A DNA stretch of 41,033 nucleotides, taken from IMG/VR virus record IMGVR_UViG_2541047701_000006. One strand, written 5' to 3'. The notes below the pieces were generated by a model. It did no database searches. It was not told the DNA's origin and worked only from the letters and a program-made list of their open reading frames with translations. The position numbers were made by a program, and so were the translations under genes. This stretch comes from a virus. Lineage: Duplodnaviria > Heunggongvirae > Uroviricota > Caudoviricetes. Shown in pieces: positions 1-40,657 of the stretch (position 1 is the first letter of the stretch; the number at the start of each line of letters is the position of its first letter).

Positions 1-462
1 ATGCTGGGTGATTGTTTCCCTCCTGATTTTAAGGCTAATTTTAGTCGTGAAAGAGGTATATCACCCGGTGATGTATTGTATCTTCATTGTGATTTTACGA
101 CCCCACCTAAAGTAAAATATATGGTGGTTGTTTGCTGTGAACCTCTTTTAGTTCTTCTAATAAATTCAGATATAAATGAATTTATTAAGAGAAACAATGA
201 TCTTATGGCTTGTCAGGTCGAAATTAATAGAGAGGACCATGATTTTCTTAAATGGGACTCATTTGTTAATTGCATTGAGGCTCATGCTGCTTTCGATCTT
301 GAAATTATTAAAGAGAAAATAGCCATCCAATATGGTGACGTGCTAAAAGGTCGCATTACAGATCATTGTATGAGACAAGTTCGATGTGCAGTTGAGATAT
401 CTAAAACTATGGTTAAACGGCATAAAAAACTGATACTCGCTGCTCTTCAACATTATGAATAA
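1..462 (+). CDS. Hypothetical protein, AT-rich orphan (cargo candidate)
   Basis: 153-aa ORF starting with ATG at nt 1; visibly lower GC than flanking phage genes; hairpin terminator directly downstream; no motif recognised. Confidence 0.45.
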   Translation: MLGDCFPPDFKANFSRERGISPGDVLYLHCDFTTPPKVKYMVVVCCEPLLVLLINSDINEFIKRNNDLMACQVEINREDHDFLKWDSFVNCIEAHAAFDLEIIKEKIAIQYGDVLKGRITDHCMRQVRCAVEISKTMVKRHKKLILAALQHYE

Positions 463-482
463 ACCCATCTTTGGATGGGTTT
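461..482. terminator. Hairpin between convergent genes (AAACCCATC-TTTG-GATGGGTTT)
   Basis: Perfect 9-bp inverted repeat with 4-nt loop immediately after the stop at 460-462; weak T-tract. Confidence 0.45.
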
Positions 483-495
483 ATTCATATTCTAT

Positions 496-768
496 TTAAA
501 TGAGCCTTTGTTTATGGGTTCTGACCCTTTCCCACTCAGCACGCCCTTCTTCTCGCCTTTTGTCTATGTATTCCGCAAGATCCTGAATATTGATGCAACG
601 TTTTGCTTTTTGTGATGTGCCGATGCGATATGTTGGAACGGGCAACTTACAAGCGTTTGCTTTTGCTTCTGCCGTGGCTGGACTCATGCCAAAGTACTTT
701 TGGCTAACTGCTGAGAGTTCAATGTTAGGGGTATTGAATTCAGCCATCAGTAAAAACAAGGTATTCAT
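496..768 (-). CDS. PrtN/AlpA-like small DNA-binding protein (possible excisionase or transcriptional activator)
   Basis: Translation MNTLFLLMAEF...KYFGMSPATAEAKA...LPVPTYRIG resembles the pyocin-activator/excisionase-like family from memory; GGAG 6 nt upstream of ATG at 768; track ORF extends to 795. Confidence 0.5.
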   Translation of the reverse strand: MNTLFLLMAEFNTPNIELSAVSQKYFGMSPATAEAKANACKLPVPTYRIGTSQKAKRCINIQDLAEYIDKRREEGRAEWERVRTHKQRLI

Positions 769-804
769 AATTTTCTCCATCAAAACCGGCTGCACCCGGG
801 AAAA

Positions 805-1380
805 TCATAATTCTGTGCTGGTGGCAGGAATTAATTTCTGCCAGATAGCGGAAACATATTTTGCCTGATGACGGGCATCGGCTAGGGCGTTGTGCCGTTC
901 GCCATCGAAAGGCATGTCCATTTTGGGGTCGAATCCGATGGAACGCCCAAGCGTAACGATCGTGCGTACATCGTGGTCATTCCAGTATGCCCACGGGCAG
1001 ATTTGTCCTGCTCGCTCATAAGCTCCACGTAAAATTACGTTGTCGAAGGTGGCCCCGTTACCCCAGACTTTTAAATATTTCGTATTGGCTGCGTGCCGGT
1101 TAATGAAATGATTTAGTTCTGAGAGAGCATCGCTGATCGACAAAGTATCATCAATACAGATTGCAGCTCGTGCTTCAGGGCTTTGTTTCAACCACCACAG
1201 GATGGTATCGCCGTCAGGTGTAGCTCCTTGCCCCATAGCACTTTCCAGGCTAACAACCGTATAGAATTCTTGTCCGATGTCTCCGGTTTCTGGAGTGAAG
1301 AACACCGCGCCAATGGAAACGATCGGTGCATCCTTATTTTTCCCCATCGTCTCAAGGTCGATCATTAAGTTGTTCATCAC
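805..1380 (-). CDS. Phage 3'-5' exonuclease (DnaQ/DEDD-like)
   Basis: N-terminal IDLETMG motif and overall DEDD-exonuclease-like translation; first gene-sized ORF of the leftward early operon. Confidence 0.6.
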   Translation of the reverse strand: MMNNLMIDLETMGKNKDAPIVSIGAVFFTPETGDIGQEFYTVVSLESAMGQGATPDGDTILWWLKQSPEARAAICIDDTLSISDALSELNHFINRHAANTKYLKVWGNGATFDNVILRGAYERAGQICPWAYWNDHDVRTIVTLGRSIGFDPKMDMPFDGERHNALADARHQAKYVSAIWQKLIPATSTEL

Positions 1381-2393
1381 TTCACCTCCTGCGGCGGTTC
1401 CGGTAGCGGCATCCAGTGAGTTGCTTGCTCAATACCATTACCCGGCTTAATCGTTGCATCTCCGCGCCGAAAGGTGCTTCCGGTATAGCGTGCGGAGCAT
1501 ATTAGCGGTTCAACCAGAGAGCTATCGAAATTCACCGAAATAAGCACGTTCTGGCCCTTTTCAGGCATTCGATCACTACAGCTTATCCAACTATCCGGAG
1601 TTCCCGGAGAGTTGCCATTTACATCGAAGTTTGGCTCTGCGTCCTGAACCAGGAGGATGTAACCATTCTTGGCTGTATCAAGTTCTAACGCCTCGGTGAC
1701 GGTGCCGAAATAGCGATTACCTAAATCAGCATCACAAGTGCTTACATCAATGGAAACTTCCATGCCTTCGATTAATTCTGGCAAGTTGTAAGTTTGGCTT
1801 ACAGGTTGGCTACCCTGAAGCATGGCAGCGTGGCAGGCTTCATCAACCATAGCTTCTACGTTTTCGAGAAGTACGTAACTGTACTGCTGCCCACTAACCC
1901 ATTCTTTTCTGCGAGGTAATGCGCGTGGGTCCGCTACAATGGTTCGCAAACGTTCCAGAACAGCAGGCACTACCGGCTCTACTGCCAACTGACTGGCATA
2001 TTTGTTAATGGTAACGATAAGCTCTTGCTCTGCCTCATCCAGACAATCACCGATACCTCGCCTGTCACCGTCAAAATCATCGAAATCGGCGCGAATCCTG
2101 GCAACCTCCCGGATTGCGGACAACACCTCATCAGGAATTACCGGTACTGGCTGGGCTATATATAGCGGCTGAACATACCAGCCATTCGATAACCAACTGT
2201 CAGCAATGTTTTTACTCCGGGTTATTGCCGGAATACCTAAGCCGTTGTCTGAATGCAGCCAGGCCACCGGTTCTGCTTCCAGCGAGGCTAACGCTATTTC
2301 ATAAGCCCGGCGCTCAATATTGTCTCGAACGTCCAGGCTGCCTATGCGCTCTTTGATTTCTTTAATCAGTTCTTTGTCGGTGAACGTTGTCAT
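1377..2393 (-). CDS. DUF551-domain phage protein
   Basis: C-terminal W-rich segment ending THWMPLPEPP typical of DUF551; start overlaps next gene; N-terminus MTTFTDKELIKEI shared with ORF 3163-3444. Confidence 0.55.
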   Translation of the reverse strand: MTTFTDKELIKEIKERIGSLDVRDNIERRAYEIALASLEAEPVAWLHSDNGLGIPAITRSKNIADSWLSNGWYVQPLYIAQPVPVIPDEVLSAIREVARIRADFDDFDGDRRGIGDCLDEAEQELIVTINKYASQLAVEPVVPAVLERLRTIVADPRALPRRKEWVSGQQYSYVLLENVEAMVDEACHAAMLQGSQPVSQTYNLPELIEGMEVSIDVSTCDADLGNRYFGTVTEALELDTAKNGYILLVQDAEPNFDVNGNSPGTPDSWISCSDRMPEKGQNVLISVNFDSSLVEPLICSARYTGSTFRRGDATIKPGNGIEQATHWMPLPEPPQEVK

Positions 2394-2403
2394 GTGTTAG
2401 TCC

Positions 2404-2667
2404 TTAACCCGCTGTGCTTTCAACTGACGAGGGGAACAAAATCTTTTCTTCAAATCCGGCATTCATATCATGGACAGCAACACACCAATCCATTGACGAA
2501 CGATTATCAAGAGCCTCCATGATTTCATCCATGCGGCGTAGGTCATACAGGTAAATGTTTTTATCGCCAATGGTGTAAAAACCAATTTTTTTCGGTGACG
2601 GGCAGCGATCAAGAACGTTCTGTAATTCGCTCAACCATGCCTGTTCCTTTTTTGTCAAAGTTGCCAT
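2404..2667 (-). CDS. Hypothetical phage protein
   Basis: 87-aa ORF starting MATLTKK; start sits in the repeated junction (AAGGAGAGTGATATGG) so the RBS lies in the upstream gene's last codons. Confidence 0.5.
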   Translation of the reverse strand: MATLTKKEQAWLSELQNVLDRCPSPKKIGFYTIGDKNIYLYDLRRMDEIMEALDNRSSMDWCVAVHDMNAGFEEKILFPSSVESTAG

Positions 2668-2668
2668 A

Positions 2669-3160
2669 TCACTCTCCTTTGATGCGAATGCCAGTGGTAC
2701 TCATTCTCCTGATTTCCCAGAGCACACGAGGAACACCACCGTTTCCGATCGGATCGCGTTTACTCCGCAGGGCGACGCTTGATTCCGCCCAGTTTTTTCT
2801 TGGAGGAAGCTCTTTCACACGAACAAAACCAGCTGCGCGAAGAGATGCTCCTGATTCATCTGCCTGGGTGTACGTAATACAACGTTGATAACCCATAGCT
2901 TTTGCTGCCCGCCAGACAGCACCATAAAGCGCGCTGTTAGCGTTGCGTTCTCCTGTGGTACATGTGCGATTTACTTCAAGCGTTAATCCATCGTCCAAAT
3001 GTCGTGCAACAGGTCGACCAGCTGTCGCCACACCTATCAATTCTCCGGCATCATTTATCAGACCAATGCTGAATTTATGCCCAACAGGTGGTTTATTGTG
3101 TCGGTGATGTCTGGATATAAACGCCTTCGCAACACGAAGAGTAACCGGTGAAATTTGCAT
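2669..3160 (-). CDS. Hypothetical phage protein
   Basis: ORF ending IRIKGE; start set at MQISP (ATG at 3160) 2 nt after the upstream TGA, RBS AAGGAGAG inside the upstream gene; track ORF extends to 3199. Confidence 0.5.
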   Translation of the reverse strand: MQISPVTLRVAKAFISRHHRHNKPPVGHKFSIGLINDAGELIGVATAGRPVARHLDDGLTLEVNRTCTTGERNANSALYGAVWRAAKAMGYQRCITYTQADESGASLRAAGFVRVKELPPRKNWAESSVALRSKRDPIGNGGVPRVLWEIRRMSTTGIRIKGE

Positions 3161-3162
3161 TC

Positions 3163-3444
3163 TCACTCTCCTTTGATGCGAATGTTTACAGCCTGACAAG
3201 CCTCTTCGAGAACCCAGTCAACAGCGTCTTTCCATGCTCCGGTTTCGACTGGCGGATTTTCACGCTTAACCTGTTCATAGAAGCGCACCGCTTTAACCAA
3301 TCCTTCTGGTGTCAGTGGCACAGGCGGGGCAGTGAATAACGCCTGAATTTCATAGTTCGGCCTGTCGTTGCAGTCTTCTTTTGTCGGTACGTATTTCCAG
3401 TCACTGATTTCTTTAATCAGTTCTTTGTCGGTGAACGTTGTCAT
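3163..3444 (-). CDS. Hypothetical phage protein (shares N-terminal module with 1377-2393 gene)
   Basis: 93-aa ORF MTTFTDKELIKEI..., ends NIRIKGE; about 50 bp at its start is repeated at 2350-2405. Confidence 0.5.
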   Translation of the reverse strand: MTTFTDKELIKEISDWKYVPTKEDCNDRPNYEIQALFTAPPVPLTPEGLVKAVRFYEQVKRENPPVETGAWKDAVDWVLEEACQAVNIRIKGE

Positions 3445-3447
3445 GTG

Positions 3448-3735
3448 TTAGTCCTCATCCACTTCAACGCCATCTTTCAGCGTGATGCCGTGCCAATCAT
3501 CAGCCCAACTGGTTAGCCCTGGCGCATCAATGCTAGGCATATAGACGCTTGCAGTGTGGTAGCCCTTATCGTTATCAATGCTGGCAACGTGCTCGCCGTT
3601 GTATGCGCTCAGCGTGTCCAGGACGCTATAAAACTTTCCTCCGGCTGCCCTGAAATCCTTTACAGCCTTCACAAGGCGATTCCACGCTTTTTCCTGTTCT
3701 GGCGTCAGGTCGATTAATTCCTGCAAAGTTGCCAT
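3448..3735 (-). CDS. Hypothetical phage protein
   Basis: Start set at MATLQELIDL (ATG at 3735) using the same junction/RBS repeat; track ORF extends to 3897 overlapping the upstream gene. Confidence 0.5.
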   Translation of the reverse strand: MATLQELIDLTPEQEKAWNRLVKAVKDFRAAGGKFYSVLDTLSAYNGEHVASIDNDKGYHTASVYMPSIDAPGLTSWADDWHGITLKDGVEVDED

Positions 3736-3736
3736 A

Positions 3737-4300
3737 TCACTCTCCTTTGATGCGAATGCCAGCGGCGCGCTCGGCTTCACTTTGTTCCCAAAACCACTTG
3801 TGAAGCGCCATAAGTTTTTCGTCAATCGGTGCATATTTGCGATTAAAGTAGGCCTGAGCATCTTTCTCAGATTCGTCCGGTAATTCGCCTGGGCCAAACA
3901 GTGTGTTATAAATCCATGCCAGTCCGCTCTTAGCGTCGCCAGTTGCCTGCCATTCGATAATGGCAGCCTGCATGACCAGAATGTTTTTCCCGATTAATAG
4001 GTCCAGTTCTTTGTACCGGTTGCGGATGTATGCATTCTCGCTTTGTAATTCAGCGTTTCGCTTCTCTGCTGCTTCCAGCTCATCCAGCAGCGCCAAGACG
4101 GTGGCAGGATTGGCGGCGGCTATGAATCGTTTATTGGCGCGATTATCTGGTCCTGAGCATGATGCTATGTAGTAATTGGCGTTCAGTCCGGCATCGGCAA
4201 TTACTCCATGGTAGTCATCAGCACACCATTCGCCTGGTGTTGCATTTTCTGCCGCCAGTCGCAGAGACTGATAGTTAATCTCGCTCACTGGTTGCCTCAT
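3737..4300 (-). CDS. Ead/Ea22-like protein
   Basis: N-terminal INYQSLRLAAENATPGEW and central coiled coil resemble the Ea22-like family of lambdoid early-left regions; ends GIRIKGE. Confidence 0.55.
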   Translation of the reverse strand: MRQPVSEINYQSLRLAAENATPGEWCADDYHGVIADAGLNANYYIASCSGPDNRANKRFIAAANPATVLALLDELEAAEKRNAELQSENAYIRNRYKELDLLIGKNILVMQAAIIEWQATGDAKSGLAWIYNTLFGPGELPDESEKDAQAYFNRKYAPIDEKLMALHKWFWEQSEAERAAGIRIKGE

Positions 4301-7444: not shown

Positions 7445-8098
7445 TCAAAAATCCATTATTACTTGTTTGACAAGACCAACTATTCTGCAGTTCTCACCGC
7501 ATTCAATAGTTTTATAGTTAGGATTTAGTGGGACGAGATACCTGTTCGGCCAGTCCTCAACAAATTTTTTGAGTGTCGCTTCTTGCCCACCATTGATATG
7601 GGCAACAACGATTTTTCCGTTAATACACTCTGTATCAATAATATCTGGCTCTACGATAACGATAGAACCTTCTGGTATCGATGGTGAGCCGAGGGGATTG
7701 GTCATTGAATCACCACGGACCCGTAGTGCAAATGCCATTTCTGATACAAGGGCGGTAGTATAAACCCACTCTTCAGCATCTTCTTTCCTGACACCAGGCT
7801 CCGTCATTGTCCATGAACCCGCCTGAACCCACGAGATGAGGGGGACTTTTTTAACTGCGAATATTTCAGGTTTTAGATTTATCTTTGGTTCAGGCGAGCC
7901 TTTTCCGCTAACAAGCCACAGAGGATCGCATTTAAGTGCGTTGGCTAGGGCTTGAAGGTTGGCTCCATTTGGTTGGTAGTCGTCCTTTTCCCATCCAGTA
8001 ACCGTGACACGGTTCACACCAGTCAAATCAGCCAGTGCTTGTTGTGTCAGGTTCAGTTCTTTTCGCCTTTGGCGAATACGATCACTCATGTTCATCAT
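7445..8098 (-). CDS. CI-like prophage repressor (HTH_XRE N-terminus, S24/LexA-type autopeptidase C-terminus)
   Basis: N-terminal HTH (LTQQALADLTGVNRVTVTGWE); C-terminal S24 signature (RVRGDSM serine, ATLKKF lysine); first ATG at 8098, track ORF starts at a TTG at 8122. Confidence 0.8.
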   Translation of the reverse strand: MMNMSDRIRQRRKELNLTQQALADLTGVNRVTVTGWEKDDYQPNGANLQALANALKCDPLWLVSGKGSPEPKINLKPEIFAVKKVPLISWVQAGSWTMTEPGVRKEDAEEWVYTTALVSEMAFALRVRGDSMTNPLGSPSIPEGSIVIVEPDIIDTECINGKIVVAHINGGQEATLKKFVEDWPNRYLVPLNPNYKTIECGENCRIVGLVKQVIMDF

Positions 8099-8116
8099 GT
8101 AGGCAATCCTACCACA

Positions 8117-8165
8117 TGCCAATGTAGGATTCTTGACATTGACATGTTGGATATCCTACATTTCT
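8117..8165 (+). promoter_or_regulatory. Rightward early promoter/operator module (PR/OR-like)
   Basis: Tandem TTGACA hexamers overlapped by operator ATGTTGGATATCCTACAT (8143-8160) and a partial copy at 8121-8134; between divergent repressor and cro-like genes. Confidence 0.5.
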
Positions 8166-37465: not shown

Positions 37466-38020
37466 ATGCTTATTGGCTATGTACGTGTGTCAACAAATGA
37501 CCAGAACACAGATCTACAACGTAATGCGCTGAACTGTGCAGGATGCGAGCTGATTTTTGAAGACAAGATAAGCGGTACAAAGTCCGAAAGGCCGGGACTG
37601 AAAAAACTGCTCAGGACATTATCGGCAGGTGATACGCTGGTGGTCTGGAAACTGGACCGACTGGGGCGCAGTATGCGGCATCTTGTCGTGCTGGTGGAGG
37701 AGTTGCGCGAACGAGGCATCAACTTTCGTAGTCTGACGGATTCAATTGATACCAGTACCCCAATGGGGCGCTTTTTCTTTCATGTGATGGGTGCCCTGGC
37801 TGAAATGGAACGTGAACTGATTGTTGAACGAACAAAAGCAGGACTGGAAGCTGCTCGCGCACAGGGACGAATTGGCGGTCGCCGTCCCAAACTTTCACCA
37901 GAACAATGGGCGCAGTCCGGGCGACTAATTGCATCAGGAGTTCCTCGCCAGAAGGTGGCGATCATTTATGATGTTGGCGTATCGACTTTGTATAAGAAGT
38001 TTCCAGTCGGAGATAAATGA
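37466..38020 (+). CDS. pin: Serine recombinase, DNA invertase Pin/Gin/Hin family
   Basis: MLIGYVRVSTNDQNTDLQ catalytic-serine N-terminus, RLGRS, C-terminal HTH; near identity to recalled e14 PinE over the N-terminal 25 aa; ATG 37466 with GGGAGA RBS (track ORF from 37430 is N-extended). Confidence 0.9.
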   Translation: MLIGYVRVSTNDQNTDLQRNALNCAGCELIFEDKISGTKSERPGLKKLLRTLSAGDTLVVWKLDRLGRSMRHLVVLVEELRERGINFRSLTDSIDTSTPMGRFFFHVMGALAEMERELIVERTKAGLEAARAQGRIGGRRPKLSPEQWAQSGRLIASGVPRQKVAIIYDVGVSTLYKKFPVGDK

Positions 38021-38123
38021 AACCGTAGCACGTCGTATGCAAGAACGTGCCACGGCTGGCTGGCGAACTTTCGATAGTGCGAGTATTGAATGATTTCCAG
38101 CCGTTACCGATTTTACGTGTTAA

Positions 38124-38372
38124 TTAGTGAACAAACCACTCGTCAGCAGATTCCCAGGTATCTTTCAGAGTCTCCTGAACAAAAGTTTTTGCAGAATCCT
38201 TATCTGCGGTGCGTGTAACAGAAAGGCCATCGTTGCTGGTGGCTTTTACGATCACCTCTACATCGTCATAACGTTTACTGATGCGTCGGGTTAATTCTTC
38301 CTTTAACGCATCCACAGCACCGGTTGGCATTTTAGTCATTTTTTCTTTGGCTATGCAGATTTCAATACGCAT
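38124..38372 (-). CDS. dinI: DinI-like protein
   Basis: [10 protein letters not shown]...[14 protein letters not shown]...[16 protein letters not shown] parallels chromosomal DinI end to end; GAGGGA RBS. Confidence 0.8.
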
Positions 38373-38385
38373 AAAAGTCCCTCTA

Positions 38386-38429
38386 TACTGTGTTTGTATA
38401 CAGTATTGTTTTTAACTGTATGGATAAAC
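38386..38429. promoter_or_regulatory. Two LexA (SOS) boxes upstream of the dinI-like gene
   Basis: CTGTGTTTGTATACAG (38386-38401) and CTGTATGGATAAACAG (38414-38429) both fit CTGT-N8-ACAG exactly. Confidence 0.65.
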
Positions 38430-38433
38430 AGTG

Positions 38434-39531
38434 TCAAGGGGTCTTATTTCTGCTCCTTTGGAGCTCTTCAAAACGATTATGTAAAGATTTCGGATACAGT
38501 TCGGTATATACCTGCCATAGCACGTTTAATGAACGATGCCCTGTAACCTGGGCTACTTCCTCAATACTAAAACCAGCCTCAAATAAGCGACTTGCCCCTT
38601 CTCTACGCAAATCATGGTATCGCAGATCCTTAATACCTAATTTGCTTCTTACCCTCTGAAATCCCGCAGTAACAGAAGTGCTGTTATATGGAAAAATGAA
38701 TTCCGATTTTTGGGGCTGTCGTTGGACGATATCCCAGGCTTCCCCAAGCAAGGCTACTTTCATGTGGTTGCCTTCCTTTTTGCGTGGATCTTTCCTGTCT
38801 CTTACGAGTATAGATTTTTGTTCCTGGTCGAGATCTTCCCATCGTAACCGGCATACTTCTCCGATTCGCATACAGGACCACACAGAAAATTTGAGGATAT
38901 CAACGAACGGAATTTTTGAGCATTTATGAGTAGATCGTTGTTGAAGGCCTTCAATGAGCATGTCCAGTTCATCAGATGCTGGTCTACGATTACGACGGTT
39001 TGATTTACCAATCAAACCAAGTTTAAGTAGATATGGACGAGCACTTTTCGCCGGGTTTGATGTGTAATTAATTCCGTATACAGGTTTGGCCGCATCCAGA
39101 ACACTGCCAAGATAACTAACATCGTGGCTGACTGTTGCTGGACCTGCGCCAGCGTTGTTTCTTAGCCTGCAATGTTCAATTACGTCATTTTCTGTCAGTT
39201 CAGATAGTTTGATCGCGGAGATGTCACTATCCATAAGCAGTTCCAGCACATATCTTTTAGTACGGCCTGCTTTACCTCCGGCATTTGGGTCATTTAAATA
39301 TTTGTGTAGTAAGTCACGGACTGTAAGTCCGTCAACTGCATTTGATGATGGAATGCCATATAGATCTAATTCCATCACTTTCTGTGTGCCCCATGTTTTG
39401 GCATGAGCATGTTTAGGGAATGTTTTGCTTTCCCTGTAAGTGATAACACCTTTTTCTTTGATAATCACATTACAGCGATAGCGTGGTGTGCCATCGGATT
39501 TTAGTCGTTTCTCTATGTTATAGTACGCCAT
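38434..39531 (-). CDS. Tyrosine integrase, dusA-associated
   Basis: C-terminal catalytic motifs (LRYHDLRREGASRL, TGHRS, Y near C-terminus); adjacent to and divergent from dusA. Confidence 0.85.
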   Translation of the reverse strand: MAYYNIEKRLKSDGTPRYRCNVIIKEKGVITYRESKTFPKHAHAKTWGTQKVMELDLYGIPSSNAVDGLTVRDLLHKYLNDPNAGGKAGRTKRYVLELLMDSDISAIKLSELTENDVIEHCRLRNNAGAGPATVSHDVSYLGSVLDAAKPVYGINYTSNPAKSARPYLLKLGLIGKSNRRNRRPASDELDMLIEGLQQRSTHKCSKIPFVDILKFSVWSCMRIGEVCRLRWEDLDQEQKSILVRDRKDPRKKEGNHMKVALLGEAWDIVQRQPQKSEFIFPYNSTSVTAGFQRVRSKLGIKDLRYHDLRREGASRLFEAGFSIEEVAQVTGHRSLNVLWQVYTELYPKSLHNRFEELQRSRNKTP

Positions 39532-39619
39532 TACACGACCTCGTTATTTCGGGTTCCCATAAAACGTGGGAACCTGAGCGGGAACCTAACGCGAGAAAAA
39601 TAGCCTGAAATGTTCAAAA

Positions 39620-40657
39620 ATGCACGATAATCATGAAACACAAAAAATTAATCAAACCAGCGTGATGCCTGAAAAAACTGGTGTTTACTGGAATTCTCGG
39701 TTTAGCATTGCTCCTATGCTTGACTGGACGGACAGACATTGCCGTTATTTCTTGCGTCTGCTTTCCCGCAATACGTTGTTGTATACCGAAATGGTGACCA
39801 CAGGGGCGATTATTCACGGTAAAGGTGATTACCTGGCGTACAGTGAAGAAGAACATCCGGTAGCGTTGCAACTCGGGGGTAGCGATCCGGCGGCGCTGGC
39901 ACAGTGTGCGAAGCTGGCAGAAGCGCGTGGATATGATGAGATCAACCTGAATGTCGGCTGCCCGTCTGACCGGGTGCAGAACGGCATGTTTGGTGCGTGT
40001 CTGATGGGTAATGCGCAGCTGGTTGCCGACTGCGTGAAAGCGATGCGCGATGTGGTGTCGATTCCGGTGACGGTGAAAACGCGTATTGGCATCGATGATC
40101 AGGACAGCTATGAATTTCTCTGCGATTTCATCAACACCGTTTCCGGCAAAGGTGAGTGTGAGATGTTCATCATCCACGCACGTAAAGCCTGGCTTTCTGG
40201 GTTAAGTCCGAAAGAAAACCGTGAGATCCCGCCTCTCGATTATCCGCGTGTGTATCAACTGAAGCGTGACTTTCCGCATCTGACGATGTCGATTAACGGT
40301 GGTATCAAGTCGCTGGAAGAAGCTAAAGCGCATTTGCAACATATGGATGGCGTGATGGTCGGGCGCGAGGCGTATCAGAATCCGGGTATTCTGGCGGCGG
40401 TAGACCGAGAGATTTTTGGTTCCTCGGATACCGATGCCGATCCGGTGGCGGTAGTGCGCGCCATGTATCCGTACATTGAGCGTGAACTCAGCCAGGGTAC
40501 GTATCTCGGCCATATTACCCGGCATATGCTGGGCTTGTTCCAGGGTATTCCTGGCGCGCGGCAGTGGCGGCGTTATTTAAGTGAAAATGCCCATAAAGCG
40601 GGTGCAGACATTAATGTGCTGGAACACGCGCTCAAACTGGTGGCGGATAAGCGTTAA
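39620..40657 (+). CDS. dusA: tRNA-dihydrouridine synthase A (host)
   Basis: FMN/TIM-barrel Dus motifs ([30 protein letters not shown]); pspG is its downstream neighbour. Confidence 0.9.

Follow-up and report, generated by a model that had tools for sequence, protein, structure and literature searches.

What does a dinI-like gene placed behind two LexA boxes do for the prophage that carries it? The question is raised by IMG/VR virus record IMGVR_UViG_2541047701_000006 (Caudoviricetes), a stretch of 41,033 nucleotides that we analysed at its full length and call the window below, and which is an Escherichia coli prophage at the 5' end of dusA. Our analysis suggests that the gene belongs to an SOS-controlled moron whose protein would work on RecA filaments and might exert a mild negative feedback on prophage induction; taken as a whole, this is the best explanation that we can offer and we consider it probable. 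The arrangement had been presented as notable in an earlier reading of this DNA (the original prediction), and in this respect the claim has to be toned down: dinI behind LexA boxes is already known, and the same cassette is widespread and has been deposited and annotated, SOS box included. The only additions made here are a second operator that had gone unannotated, a private change in the -10 hexamer and an RNA element downstream of the gene.

Two LexA boxes in the dinI promoter

The gene and the two boxes are placed as follows:
38124-38372, minus strand: dinI-like gene, an open reading frame (ORF) of 82 amino acids coding for a RecA-filament-binding protein by homology (Pfam PF06183, PDB 1GHH/7YWA)
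38386-38405, minus strand: putative proximal LexA box, TACTGTATACAAACACAGTA, with an exact CTGT-N8-ACAG at 38388-38403 and a heterology index (HI*) of 4.5
38414-38433, minus strand: putative distal LexA box, CACTGTTTATCCATACAGTT, with an exact CTGT-N8-ACAG at 38416-38431 and an HI* of 5.7

Both of the exact CTGT-N8-ACAG sites that had been predicted upstream of a DinI homologue are present, and the gap between them is 12 bp between the 16-mers rather than the 13 bp first claimed (the full 20-mers are separated by 8 bp, and their centres lie 28 bp apart). The dinI start codon lies 13 nt downstream of the proximal box. Boxes were scored with the heterology-index formula on a symmetrised count matrix of 26 E. 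coli LexA boxes, and HI* is a scale of our own. On this matrix the proximal box (4.5), recA (4.8), sulA (5.4) and the distal box (5.7) lie close together, and the next best 20-mer in 41 kb has an HI* of 13.3; the two boxes agree with the LexA consensus TACTG(TA)5CAGTA at 17/20 and 16/20 positions. The same scan of the 41 kb found no other LexA target in the prophage, neither at an antirepressor nor in the repressor region, the site with HI* 13.3 being the best one, which leaves the dinI promoter as the prophage's sole plausible LexA target.

Exact CTGT-N8-ACAG sites occur three times in the whole window, compared to 0.51 expected from shuffles, and we estimate from this shuffle-based rate that, given one match, the probability of a second within 40 bp on either side is about 1e-3. 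The shuffle expectation together with the matrix scores rules out a chance origin of the paired boxes. The third exact match, at 35717-35732 (CTGTGCTGGCGAACAG), has a GC-rich spacer and falls outside the 15 best matrix scores (HI* above 15.8); it is most likely due to chance.

The predicted promoter is tightly interwoven with both boxes, and its elements are the following:
38432-38437, minus strand: -35 hexamer TTGACA, read from the sequence and from the promoter annotation of phage mEp460, and TTGACA in 57 of 64 aligned unique copies
38408-38413, minus strand: probable -10 hexamer AAAAAC, predicted, with an 18-bp spacer; AAAAAT in every other copy
38409-38414, minus strand: alternative -10 hexamer TAAAAA with a 17-bp spacer, the reading annotated in mEp460 (TTGACA-N17-TAAAAA)
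38378-38383, minus strand: putative Shine-Dalgarno sequence GAGGGA, ending 5 nt before the ATG

Read along the minus strand, the region runs TTGACA (38437-38432), CTGTTTATCCATACAG, T, TAAAAA, CAA, TACTGTATACAAACACAGTA, TAGAGGGACTTTT and ATG. The distal box fills the spacer between -35 and -10 under either reading of the -10 hexamer, and the proximal box starts 2-3 nt past it, over the transcription start that the -10 would predict (~38400-38402). The LexA box of the recA promoter likewise lies between -35 and -10. Regarding a divergent or antisense promoter that would use the boxes from the plus strand, the promoter scanner returned nothing, and a weak TTCAAT/TATACT candidate was seen by eye.

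The boxes are also conserved among related loci. They stand (HI* <= 11) at fixed positions, about -61 and -33 counted from the start codon, in 44 of the 50 unique upstream regions that could be collected, with at least 100 nt available, from DinI loci of IMG/VR and genome contigs. Both are kept even where DinI is only 60-72% identical and where the sequence of the box differs, as in CACTGTATAAATAACCAGTT. The per-position deviation from the majority among unique copies was 2.7% in the CTG/CAG cores and 12.9% in the rest of the boxes, compared to 12.3% in other promoter and 5' untranslated region (UTR) positions, 15.2% at third codon positions and 4.2% at first and second codon positions, rates that come from related sequences and are indicative rather than formally tested. 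In the proximal box, none of 67 unique copies departs from the CTG/CAG cores. Judged by its sequence, then, the dinI unit has every feature of an SOS-regulon promoter, and its two boxes of recA/sulA strength are credible operators at which LexA would be expected to bind. More than one LexA box per promoter is a property shared with lexA (two boxes) and recN (three boxes), and colicin-gene promoters likewise have several LexA operators. Cooperative binding of LexA cannot be assumed here, because the spacing of 28 bp between centres does not correspond to whole helical turns.

The encoded protein is a DinI homologue

The identification of the gene as a DinI homologue was confirmed at several levels. 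The Pfam DinI profile (PF06183) matches with 70.9 bits against a cutoff of 24.2 (E=1.1e-19), positions 1-63 of its 63 being spanned by residues 16-80 of the 82-residue protein, and a sequence search matched the E. coli DinI structures 1GHH/7YWA at E=3.7e-13. An AlphaFold2 model based on 29 homologues has a mean predicted local distance difference test (pLDDT) score of 74 and the element order E-H-H-E-E-H, that is, the small alpha/beta fold with a long C-terminal acidic helix found in the DinI family. When this model was submitted to Foldseek, 1GHH was matched with a template modelling (TM) score of 0.76 and 7YWA with 0.75/0.78, while the next match had E=0.07. The protein is 100% identical in phages mEp460 and SKA5.

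On the RecA filament, DinI places L13, L21, W71, W77 and F78 at the pocket of the L2 loop, and E24, E69 and D76 face the basic patch (Gao 2023). The equivalent residues in the window are M15, L23, W73, W79 and F80, and E26, D71 and E78, respectively, which in the alignment amounts to five identities and three conservative changes. Binding of the 82-residue protein to RecA filaments is strongly expected. DinI lengthens RecA filaments in vitro (Gao 2023), and the review literature describes stabilisation of the filaments at stoichiometric levels and inhibition at high levels; since the action of DinI depends on its concentration, any feedback could be of either sign.

A mobile cassette known from other prophages

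The promoter, the two boxes, dinI and the 3' hairpin make up a cassette of about 420 bp (38018-38437) with well defined edges. As judged by where BLAST matches end, the -35 hexamer is the point from which copies in other contexts are homologous (37 loci), and on the other side the homology mostly ends 95-111 nt past the dinI stop, at 38018-38020, just beyond the hairpin and at the stop codon of pin. At least seven different, unrelated sequences precede the copies of the cassette. It is present in 106 phage records, including Stx1a, Stx2a, Stx2c, cdtI, CP-1639, mEp460 and SKA5, and a 68-nt promoter probe found it in 1029 of 5426 complete E. coli genomes (~19%), with up to three copies each. It has the integrase or attachment site on one side and tail-fibre or pin genes on the other. 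The cassette is by these boundaries an autonomous add-on unit, or moron, in which the hairpin would act as terminator.

In the window the cassette follows the integrase gene:
38434-39531, minus strand: dusA-specific tyrosine integrase (Pfam Phage_integrase E=7.5e-21; RefSeq annotation; dusA adjacent)

This gene is directly upstream of dinI and on the same strand, and with the mobility of the cassette among contexts it bears out the idea of a variable cargo slot beside the integrase. The TGA that ends the integrase gene (38434-38436) falls inside the -35 hexamer TTGACA of dinI, and this hexamer is also the exact start of homology to cassettes in other contexts; the reading frame of the integrase is thus closed by the inserted unit. 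There is no terminator between int and dinI. On the other side, 103 nt separate the dinI stop from the convergent pin stop, and no ORF of 30 or more amino acids was found on the dinI strand between these two genes.

The same cassette, with a protein 95-100% identical, is found in VT1-Sakai H0001 (AP000400), mEp460, SKA5, cdtI phage, CP-1639 and many Stx1/Stx2 phages. Cassettes of the VT1-Sakai type share the 3' element, the order TTGACA / box / AAAAAT / box and a place beside the attachment site or integrase. In the VT1-Sakai record (AP000400) the homologous promoter is annotated, with the proximal box labelled a LexA-bound 'putative SOS box', and the mEp460 record, 99.5% identical in this region, annotates the promoter in the 17-bp spacer reading given above; in both records the distal box in the spacer is unannotated. 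VT1-Sakai differs in having two weaker boxes (HI* 8.4 and 9.7) and, after the element, a truncated ykgJ-like ORF, whereas the window lacks ykgJ and has the private -10 change. The same cassette has hence been annotated in phage records since 2000, and the principle has been shown experimentally in Gifsy prophages.

In those prophages the dinI homologues are LexA-controlled and the protein accumulates after mitomycin C (Lemire 2011, PMC3121763). Nalidixic acid induced the Gifsy homologues 4.6- to 23-fold, and in strain CFT073 the prophage dinI-like gene c0943 is co-regulated with sulA, umuD and recN. The dinI genes of Gifsy-1, -2 and -3 resemble that of the window in being prophage-borne and in having a LexA box at the promoter; they differ from it in sequence (42% identity), in length (77 amino acids), in their single box, which lies over the -10 and after a terminator, and in their location in the nin region. 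Gifsy dinI also heads an operon with an antirepressor gene (gfoA/gftA) and irsA, whereas dinI in the window is monocistronic, has two boxes and is accompanied by a cleavable repressor; no dinI-antirepressor-irsA operon of the Gifsy type was found in the window, where only the 103 nt up to the pin stop are available. A product of 77 amino acids and one box over the -10 after a terminator characterise a whole nin-region clade from Gifsy, Klebsiella and Aeromonas, from which the window is set apart by its second operator and its position near the attachment site. Lastly, the chromosomal dinI of E. coli (b1061) has the same fold, the same RecA contacts and a LexA-controlled promoter in a short spacer behind the upstream gene, but it is 49% identical, has one LexA box overlapping the -10 and lacks the two-hairpin 3' element.

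A model for mild feedback on induction

For any feedback on induction, the relevant target in the window would be its repressor:
7445-8122, minus strand: lambda-CI-type repressor (HTH_3 and Peptidase_S24, E=4e-25), the proposed indirect target of RecA modulation; the original prediction gave 7445-8098

The S24 repressor was therefore correctly recognised. When it is aligned to lambda repressor 3BDN (E=7e-25), VQAG falls at the A111-G112 cleavage site, GDSM at Ser149 and LKK at Lys192, and by this alignment it is a lambda-CI homologue with an intact cleavage site and intact catalytic Ser and Lys. DinI and lambda CI share the L2 loop and the K232/R243/K245 basic patch of RecA in the filament groove (Gao 2023), and this shared groove makes a competition between DinI and CI structurally reasonable.

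We propose that in an undamaged lysogen two LexA dimers would occupy the promoter, one between -35 and -10 and one over the transcription start, and that the bound pair would keep dinI off, with read-through out of the integrase gene probably blocked as well. Upon DNA damage, RecA filaments would become active and LexA would cleave itself; as both boxes, each comparable in strength to those of recA/sulA, would have to be freed, dinI would be turned on only when LexA is well depleted. The 82-residue protein would then bind the groove of the RecA filament through a hydrophobic pocket and an acidic patch like those of host DinI. In the weakest step of this model, the phage protein would add to the pool of host DinI, stabilise the filaments and compete with the slower-cleaving substrates, UmuD and the CI-type repressor of the prophage. 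In the copy of the window, expression could be reduced by the T-to-C change in the -10 hexamer. Lusetti 2004 and Yasuda 2001 are reported to have found that DinI blocks UmuD cleavage more readily than LexA cleavage, and it is this preference, together with the concentration effects of DinI, that leads us to propose a mild negative feedback on slow substrates. Phage DinI might in this way mildly delay, or raise the threshold for, induction and SOS mutagenesis without being required for induction, an effect that we put forward with low confidence. In a reading weaker than that of the RNA family discussed below, the competition between phage DinI and the CI-type repressor for the RecA groove would set the induction threshold.

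Several points weigh against such a feedback. Four of the seven RecA-contacting residues listed for lambda CI are kept in the repressor of the window (F141, L143, E188 and F106, the last as a conservative I); the repressor has Q at D187 and A at F189, and F121 lies outside the comparison. Non-polar deletions of the dinI homologues carried by Gifsy-1 and by Gifsy-3 left induction unchanged (Lemire 2011, PMC3121763), although they are not a clean test because Gifsy phages use antirepressors and not repressor cleavage. A stimulating or a neutral effect on repressor cleavage is equally possible. Furthermore, the host already carries a LexA-controlled dinI, and the phage copy could be redundant; in the window this copy may, in addition, be weakened or crippled by its private -10 change. 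The promoter, the start site and the LexA occupancy of the cassette are all predictions, and the scale of the LexA matrix is our own. If phage DinI does alter RecA-dependent cleavage, its copy number would influence the antibiotic induction of Shiga-toxin and other lambdoid prophages, and also SOS mutagenicity.

The same biochemical activity could serve the host instead. Extra DinI would then limit UmuD processing and mutagenesis, or damp or prolong the SOS response, with no meaningful effect on the phage switch, and the gene would be kept for the fitness of the lysogen. We regard this as a genuine contender, if somewhat short of an even chance. It would fit a cassette that is autonomous and moves among unrelated phages and integration sites, and it would also fit the Gifsy deletions without an induction phenotype (Lemire 2011). 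Additionally, a comparative study of E. coli associates the later acquisition of quinolone-resistance mutations with a prophage region that includes a DinI-like gene, and a prophage annotation in Citrobacter rodentium lists the gene as a fitness factor. The quinolone association, however, holds for the whole viral region and not for the gene, the presence of a host dinI counts here as well, and an effect on induction is compatible with all of these data, as both effects would come from one activity.

A structured RNA element downstream of dinI

The sequence that follows dinI has features of its own:
38015-38104, minus strand: two-hairpin RNA element forming the dinI 3' UTR (fold z-score -3.5; covariance model), probably also a terminator

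The ~105 nt that follow the dinI stop fold as two hairpins with a z-score of -3.5. Hairpin 1 consists of the stem GGCUGG/CCAGCC and a conserved loop region of 33 nt; hairpin 2 has a stem of 14 bp and the loop CUUGCAUAC, and is followed in the window by UUUCAUUUAU. In relatives of the Enterobacter and Klebsiella type, hairpin 1 is 80-91% identical, compared to 69-75% for the dinI coding sequence and 39-52% for its third codon positions. A 21-nt core of the loop occurs in more than 120 viral contigs. Among 155 distinct contexts of the element, 104 are located after a dinI ORF, at least 37 have no dinI and 12 precede a ykgJ gene. A BLAST probe detected the element in 5386 of 5426 E. coli genomes (99%), the median number of copies being 2 and the highest 10.

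Alignment of the 3' UTRs with MAFFT and RNAalifold left hairpin 2 poorly aligned and gave a weak consensus of -3.9 kcal/mol, and it was replaced by a covariance-model alignment. The model was built from 27 diverse copies and recovered 77 copies in 78 loci. In this alignment 17 of 20 pairs show changes on both sides, and double-change cells number 150, compared to 39.9 ± 5.9 in shuffles, of which none in 500 reached the observed value. Paired cells made up 86.8%, as against 21-50% when partners were slid, figures that are inflated by the fitting of the alignment to the structure; 77% were paired when counted without gaps and with the loop as anchor, versus 28-42% for shifted partners.

No sense-strand match to Rfam 15 was returned at E<=5 for the window, nor for six diverse copies at E<=0.1. 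On the opposite strand, 37998-38054 (plus) resembles the 3' end of CssrB (RF02799), the Shigella sRNA B, in the terminal hairpin region only, with 31.8 bits against a gathering score of 76, which suggests that the CssrB-like hairpin also ends the convergent transcript, here that of pin.

A -10-like hexamer, TAAAAT, is located at 38110-38115 (minus strand), 5 nt before the RNA element, and TAAAAT, TATAAT, TAGAAT, TACAAT or CAAAAT occurs at the same distance upstream of the element in unrelated contexts. No convincing -35 accompanies this hexamer, the sequence in the window being TGGTTT. The RNA element might have a weak promoter of its own.

The element is likely the terminator of dinI, and it may also be an SOS-induced small RNA. 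In a broader reading, this 3' UTR would belong to an undescribed, widespread family of structured prophage RNAs, here under two-operator SOS control, so that a damaged cell would receive a RecA modulator and a regulatory RNA together; we advance this doubtfully. An RNA product, main or additional, that is released or separately transcribed as a small RNA co-induced in the SOS response, dinI being partly its carrier, also seems to us unlikely, although several results point to it: hairpin 1 is more conserved than the third codon positions of the gene that it follows, the covariation described above is accompanied by sequence conservation of the loops, the element occurs without dinI and in nearly every E. 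coli genome, and a -10-like hexamer (TAAAAT, TATAAT or TAGAAT) precedes it at a fixed distance. Against this, there is no convincing -35, many copies have no U-tract after hairpin 2, no target was found in the ftsZ comparison given below, the covariation comes from an alignment fitted to the structure, and the element could be a mere terminator or an RNA-stability element. Whatever its relation to dinI, it is a separate and possibly more interesting lead, near-universal in E. coli and with clear covariation.

Three specific roles were considered for the element. In Klebsiella, a small RNA named DinR reportedly arises from the dinI 3' UTR and base-pairs with the ftsZ mRNA. Against E. coli ftsZ, taken with 150 nt or more upstream of its start, our element formed no better duplex and no longer complementary stretch than shuffled sequences did, and a DinR-like role in targeting ftsZ is not supported, complementarity being at chance level. 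An antisense type I toxin was rejected: read by eye from a conserved ATG, the ORF has 42 amino acids in the window but 6-13 elsewhere. A leader or attenuator of ykgJ is unlikely as a general role, given that ykgJ follows in 12 of the 155 contexts.

One copy in strain K-12 lies in the ykgJ-ecpE spacer (NC_000913.3, ~304,200-304,460), upstream of ykgJ and beside a frameshifted remnant of a prophage-type dinI (NDVEAIVNITCNDGLS...EWF). The order in VT1-Sakai is dinI, element and truncated ykgJ. As both loci have the same order, the ykgJ locus of K-12 looks like the fossil of a dinI-ykgJ phage cassette.

A private change in the -10 hexamer

Natural variation helps to choose between the two readings of the -10 hexamer. 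Over 67 unique cassettes its six columns are A66, A64, A63, A67, A67 and T66, and the T that precedes them is a C in four cassettes, which makes AAAAAT with an 18-bp spacer the probable -10. Position 38408 is a G on the plus strand of the window and hence a C on the gene strand, where all 66 other unique cassettes have T. The dinI promoter was missed by a generic promoter scan because the scanner requires T at the last position of the -10.

This change raises the possibility that the gene is silent in this strain, its promoter inactivated and the boxes and gene left as an intact-looking relic. T-to-C at 38408 is the single difference from strain CX21 across the 2.3 kb from 37393 to 39720, and T is also present at the equivalent position in 51 of 51 IMG/VR contigs. 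The allele is found in no complete E. coli genome: none of the 1029 promoter-carrying genomes has an exact match to the 68-nt promoter of the window, the best reaching 98.5%. In Salmonella ST313, a single T-to-C polymorphism in the -10 silences the dinI-gfoA promoter of Gifsy-1 (Owen 2017). On the other hand, the position of the -10 is predicted, and with TAAAAA and a 17-bp spacer the change falls outside the hexamer; it may stem from a sequencing error; dinI could be expressed by read-through from the integrase gene; and the ORF is intact. On balance we find a silent gene rather unlikely.

Less likely roles: positive feedback and antirepression

Instead of damping induction, DinI might aid lytic growth by stabilising RecA filaments and countering RecX, sustaining the SOS response until repressor cleavage is complete or supporting recombination-dependent replication, which would be a positive feedback. 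The lengthening of RecA filaments by DinI in vitro would agree with this role, and two strong operators imply a late expression that would coincide with lytic commitment. DinI, however, occupies elements of the groove that CI needs, and the Gifsy deletions gave no phenotype. We hold this role to be improbable.

That the protein is an antirepressor of the Tum or Gifsy type, inactivating the repressor directly, is hardly credible and was rejected on its domain content and on the missing downstream ORF: LexA-controlled antirepressors are indeed linked to DinI sequences in 186 (Tum), PSP3, Fels-2 and Gifsy phages (Lemire 2011), but the activity resides there in a part other than DinI or in a separate small gene, whereas the window protein is a bare DinI domain of 82 amino acids, no ORF of at least 30 amino acids follows before pin, and the repressor has a complete self-cleavage domain. 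Tum of coliphage 186 shares with the window gene its control by LexA, its DinI-like sequence and its temperate phage, but it has 146 amino acids with an N-terminal antirepressor half that is absent from the window protein.

Flanking genes

A direct repeat of the dusA 5' region, which would mark a second attachment site, was not found at the left end of the window when positions 1-4000 were compared to 39450-39900; its sole trace was a very weak DusA-like translated match at 309-386, and the window may stop short of the far prophage end. Inverted repeats that would bound a pin-invertible segment were found as weak pairs only.

Between 37393 and 39720, one base separates the window from the chromosomes of strain CX21 and related strains, and in the RefSeq annotation this stretch contains pinE, a gene for a DinI-like family protein, one for a tyrosine integrase, and dusA. 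When compared position by position, near-identity to the CX21 prophage holds only from ~37393 rightwards (pin, dinI, int and dusA); to the left of it the two are out of register or unrelated, and the coordinates of the repressor differ. Since the match is restricted to the right end, the int-dinI-pin end appears to be common to prophages that are otherwise different.

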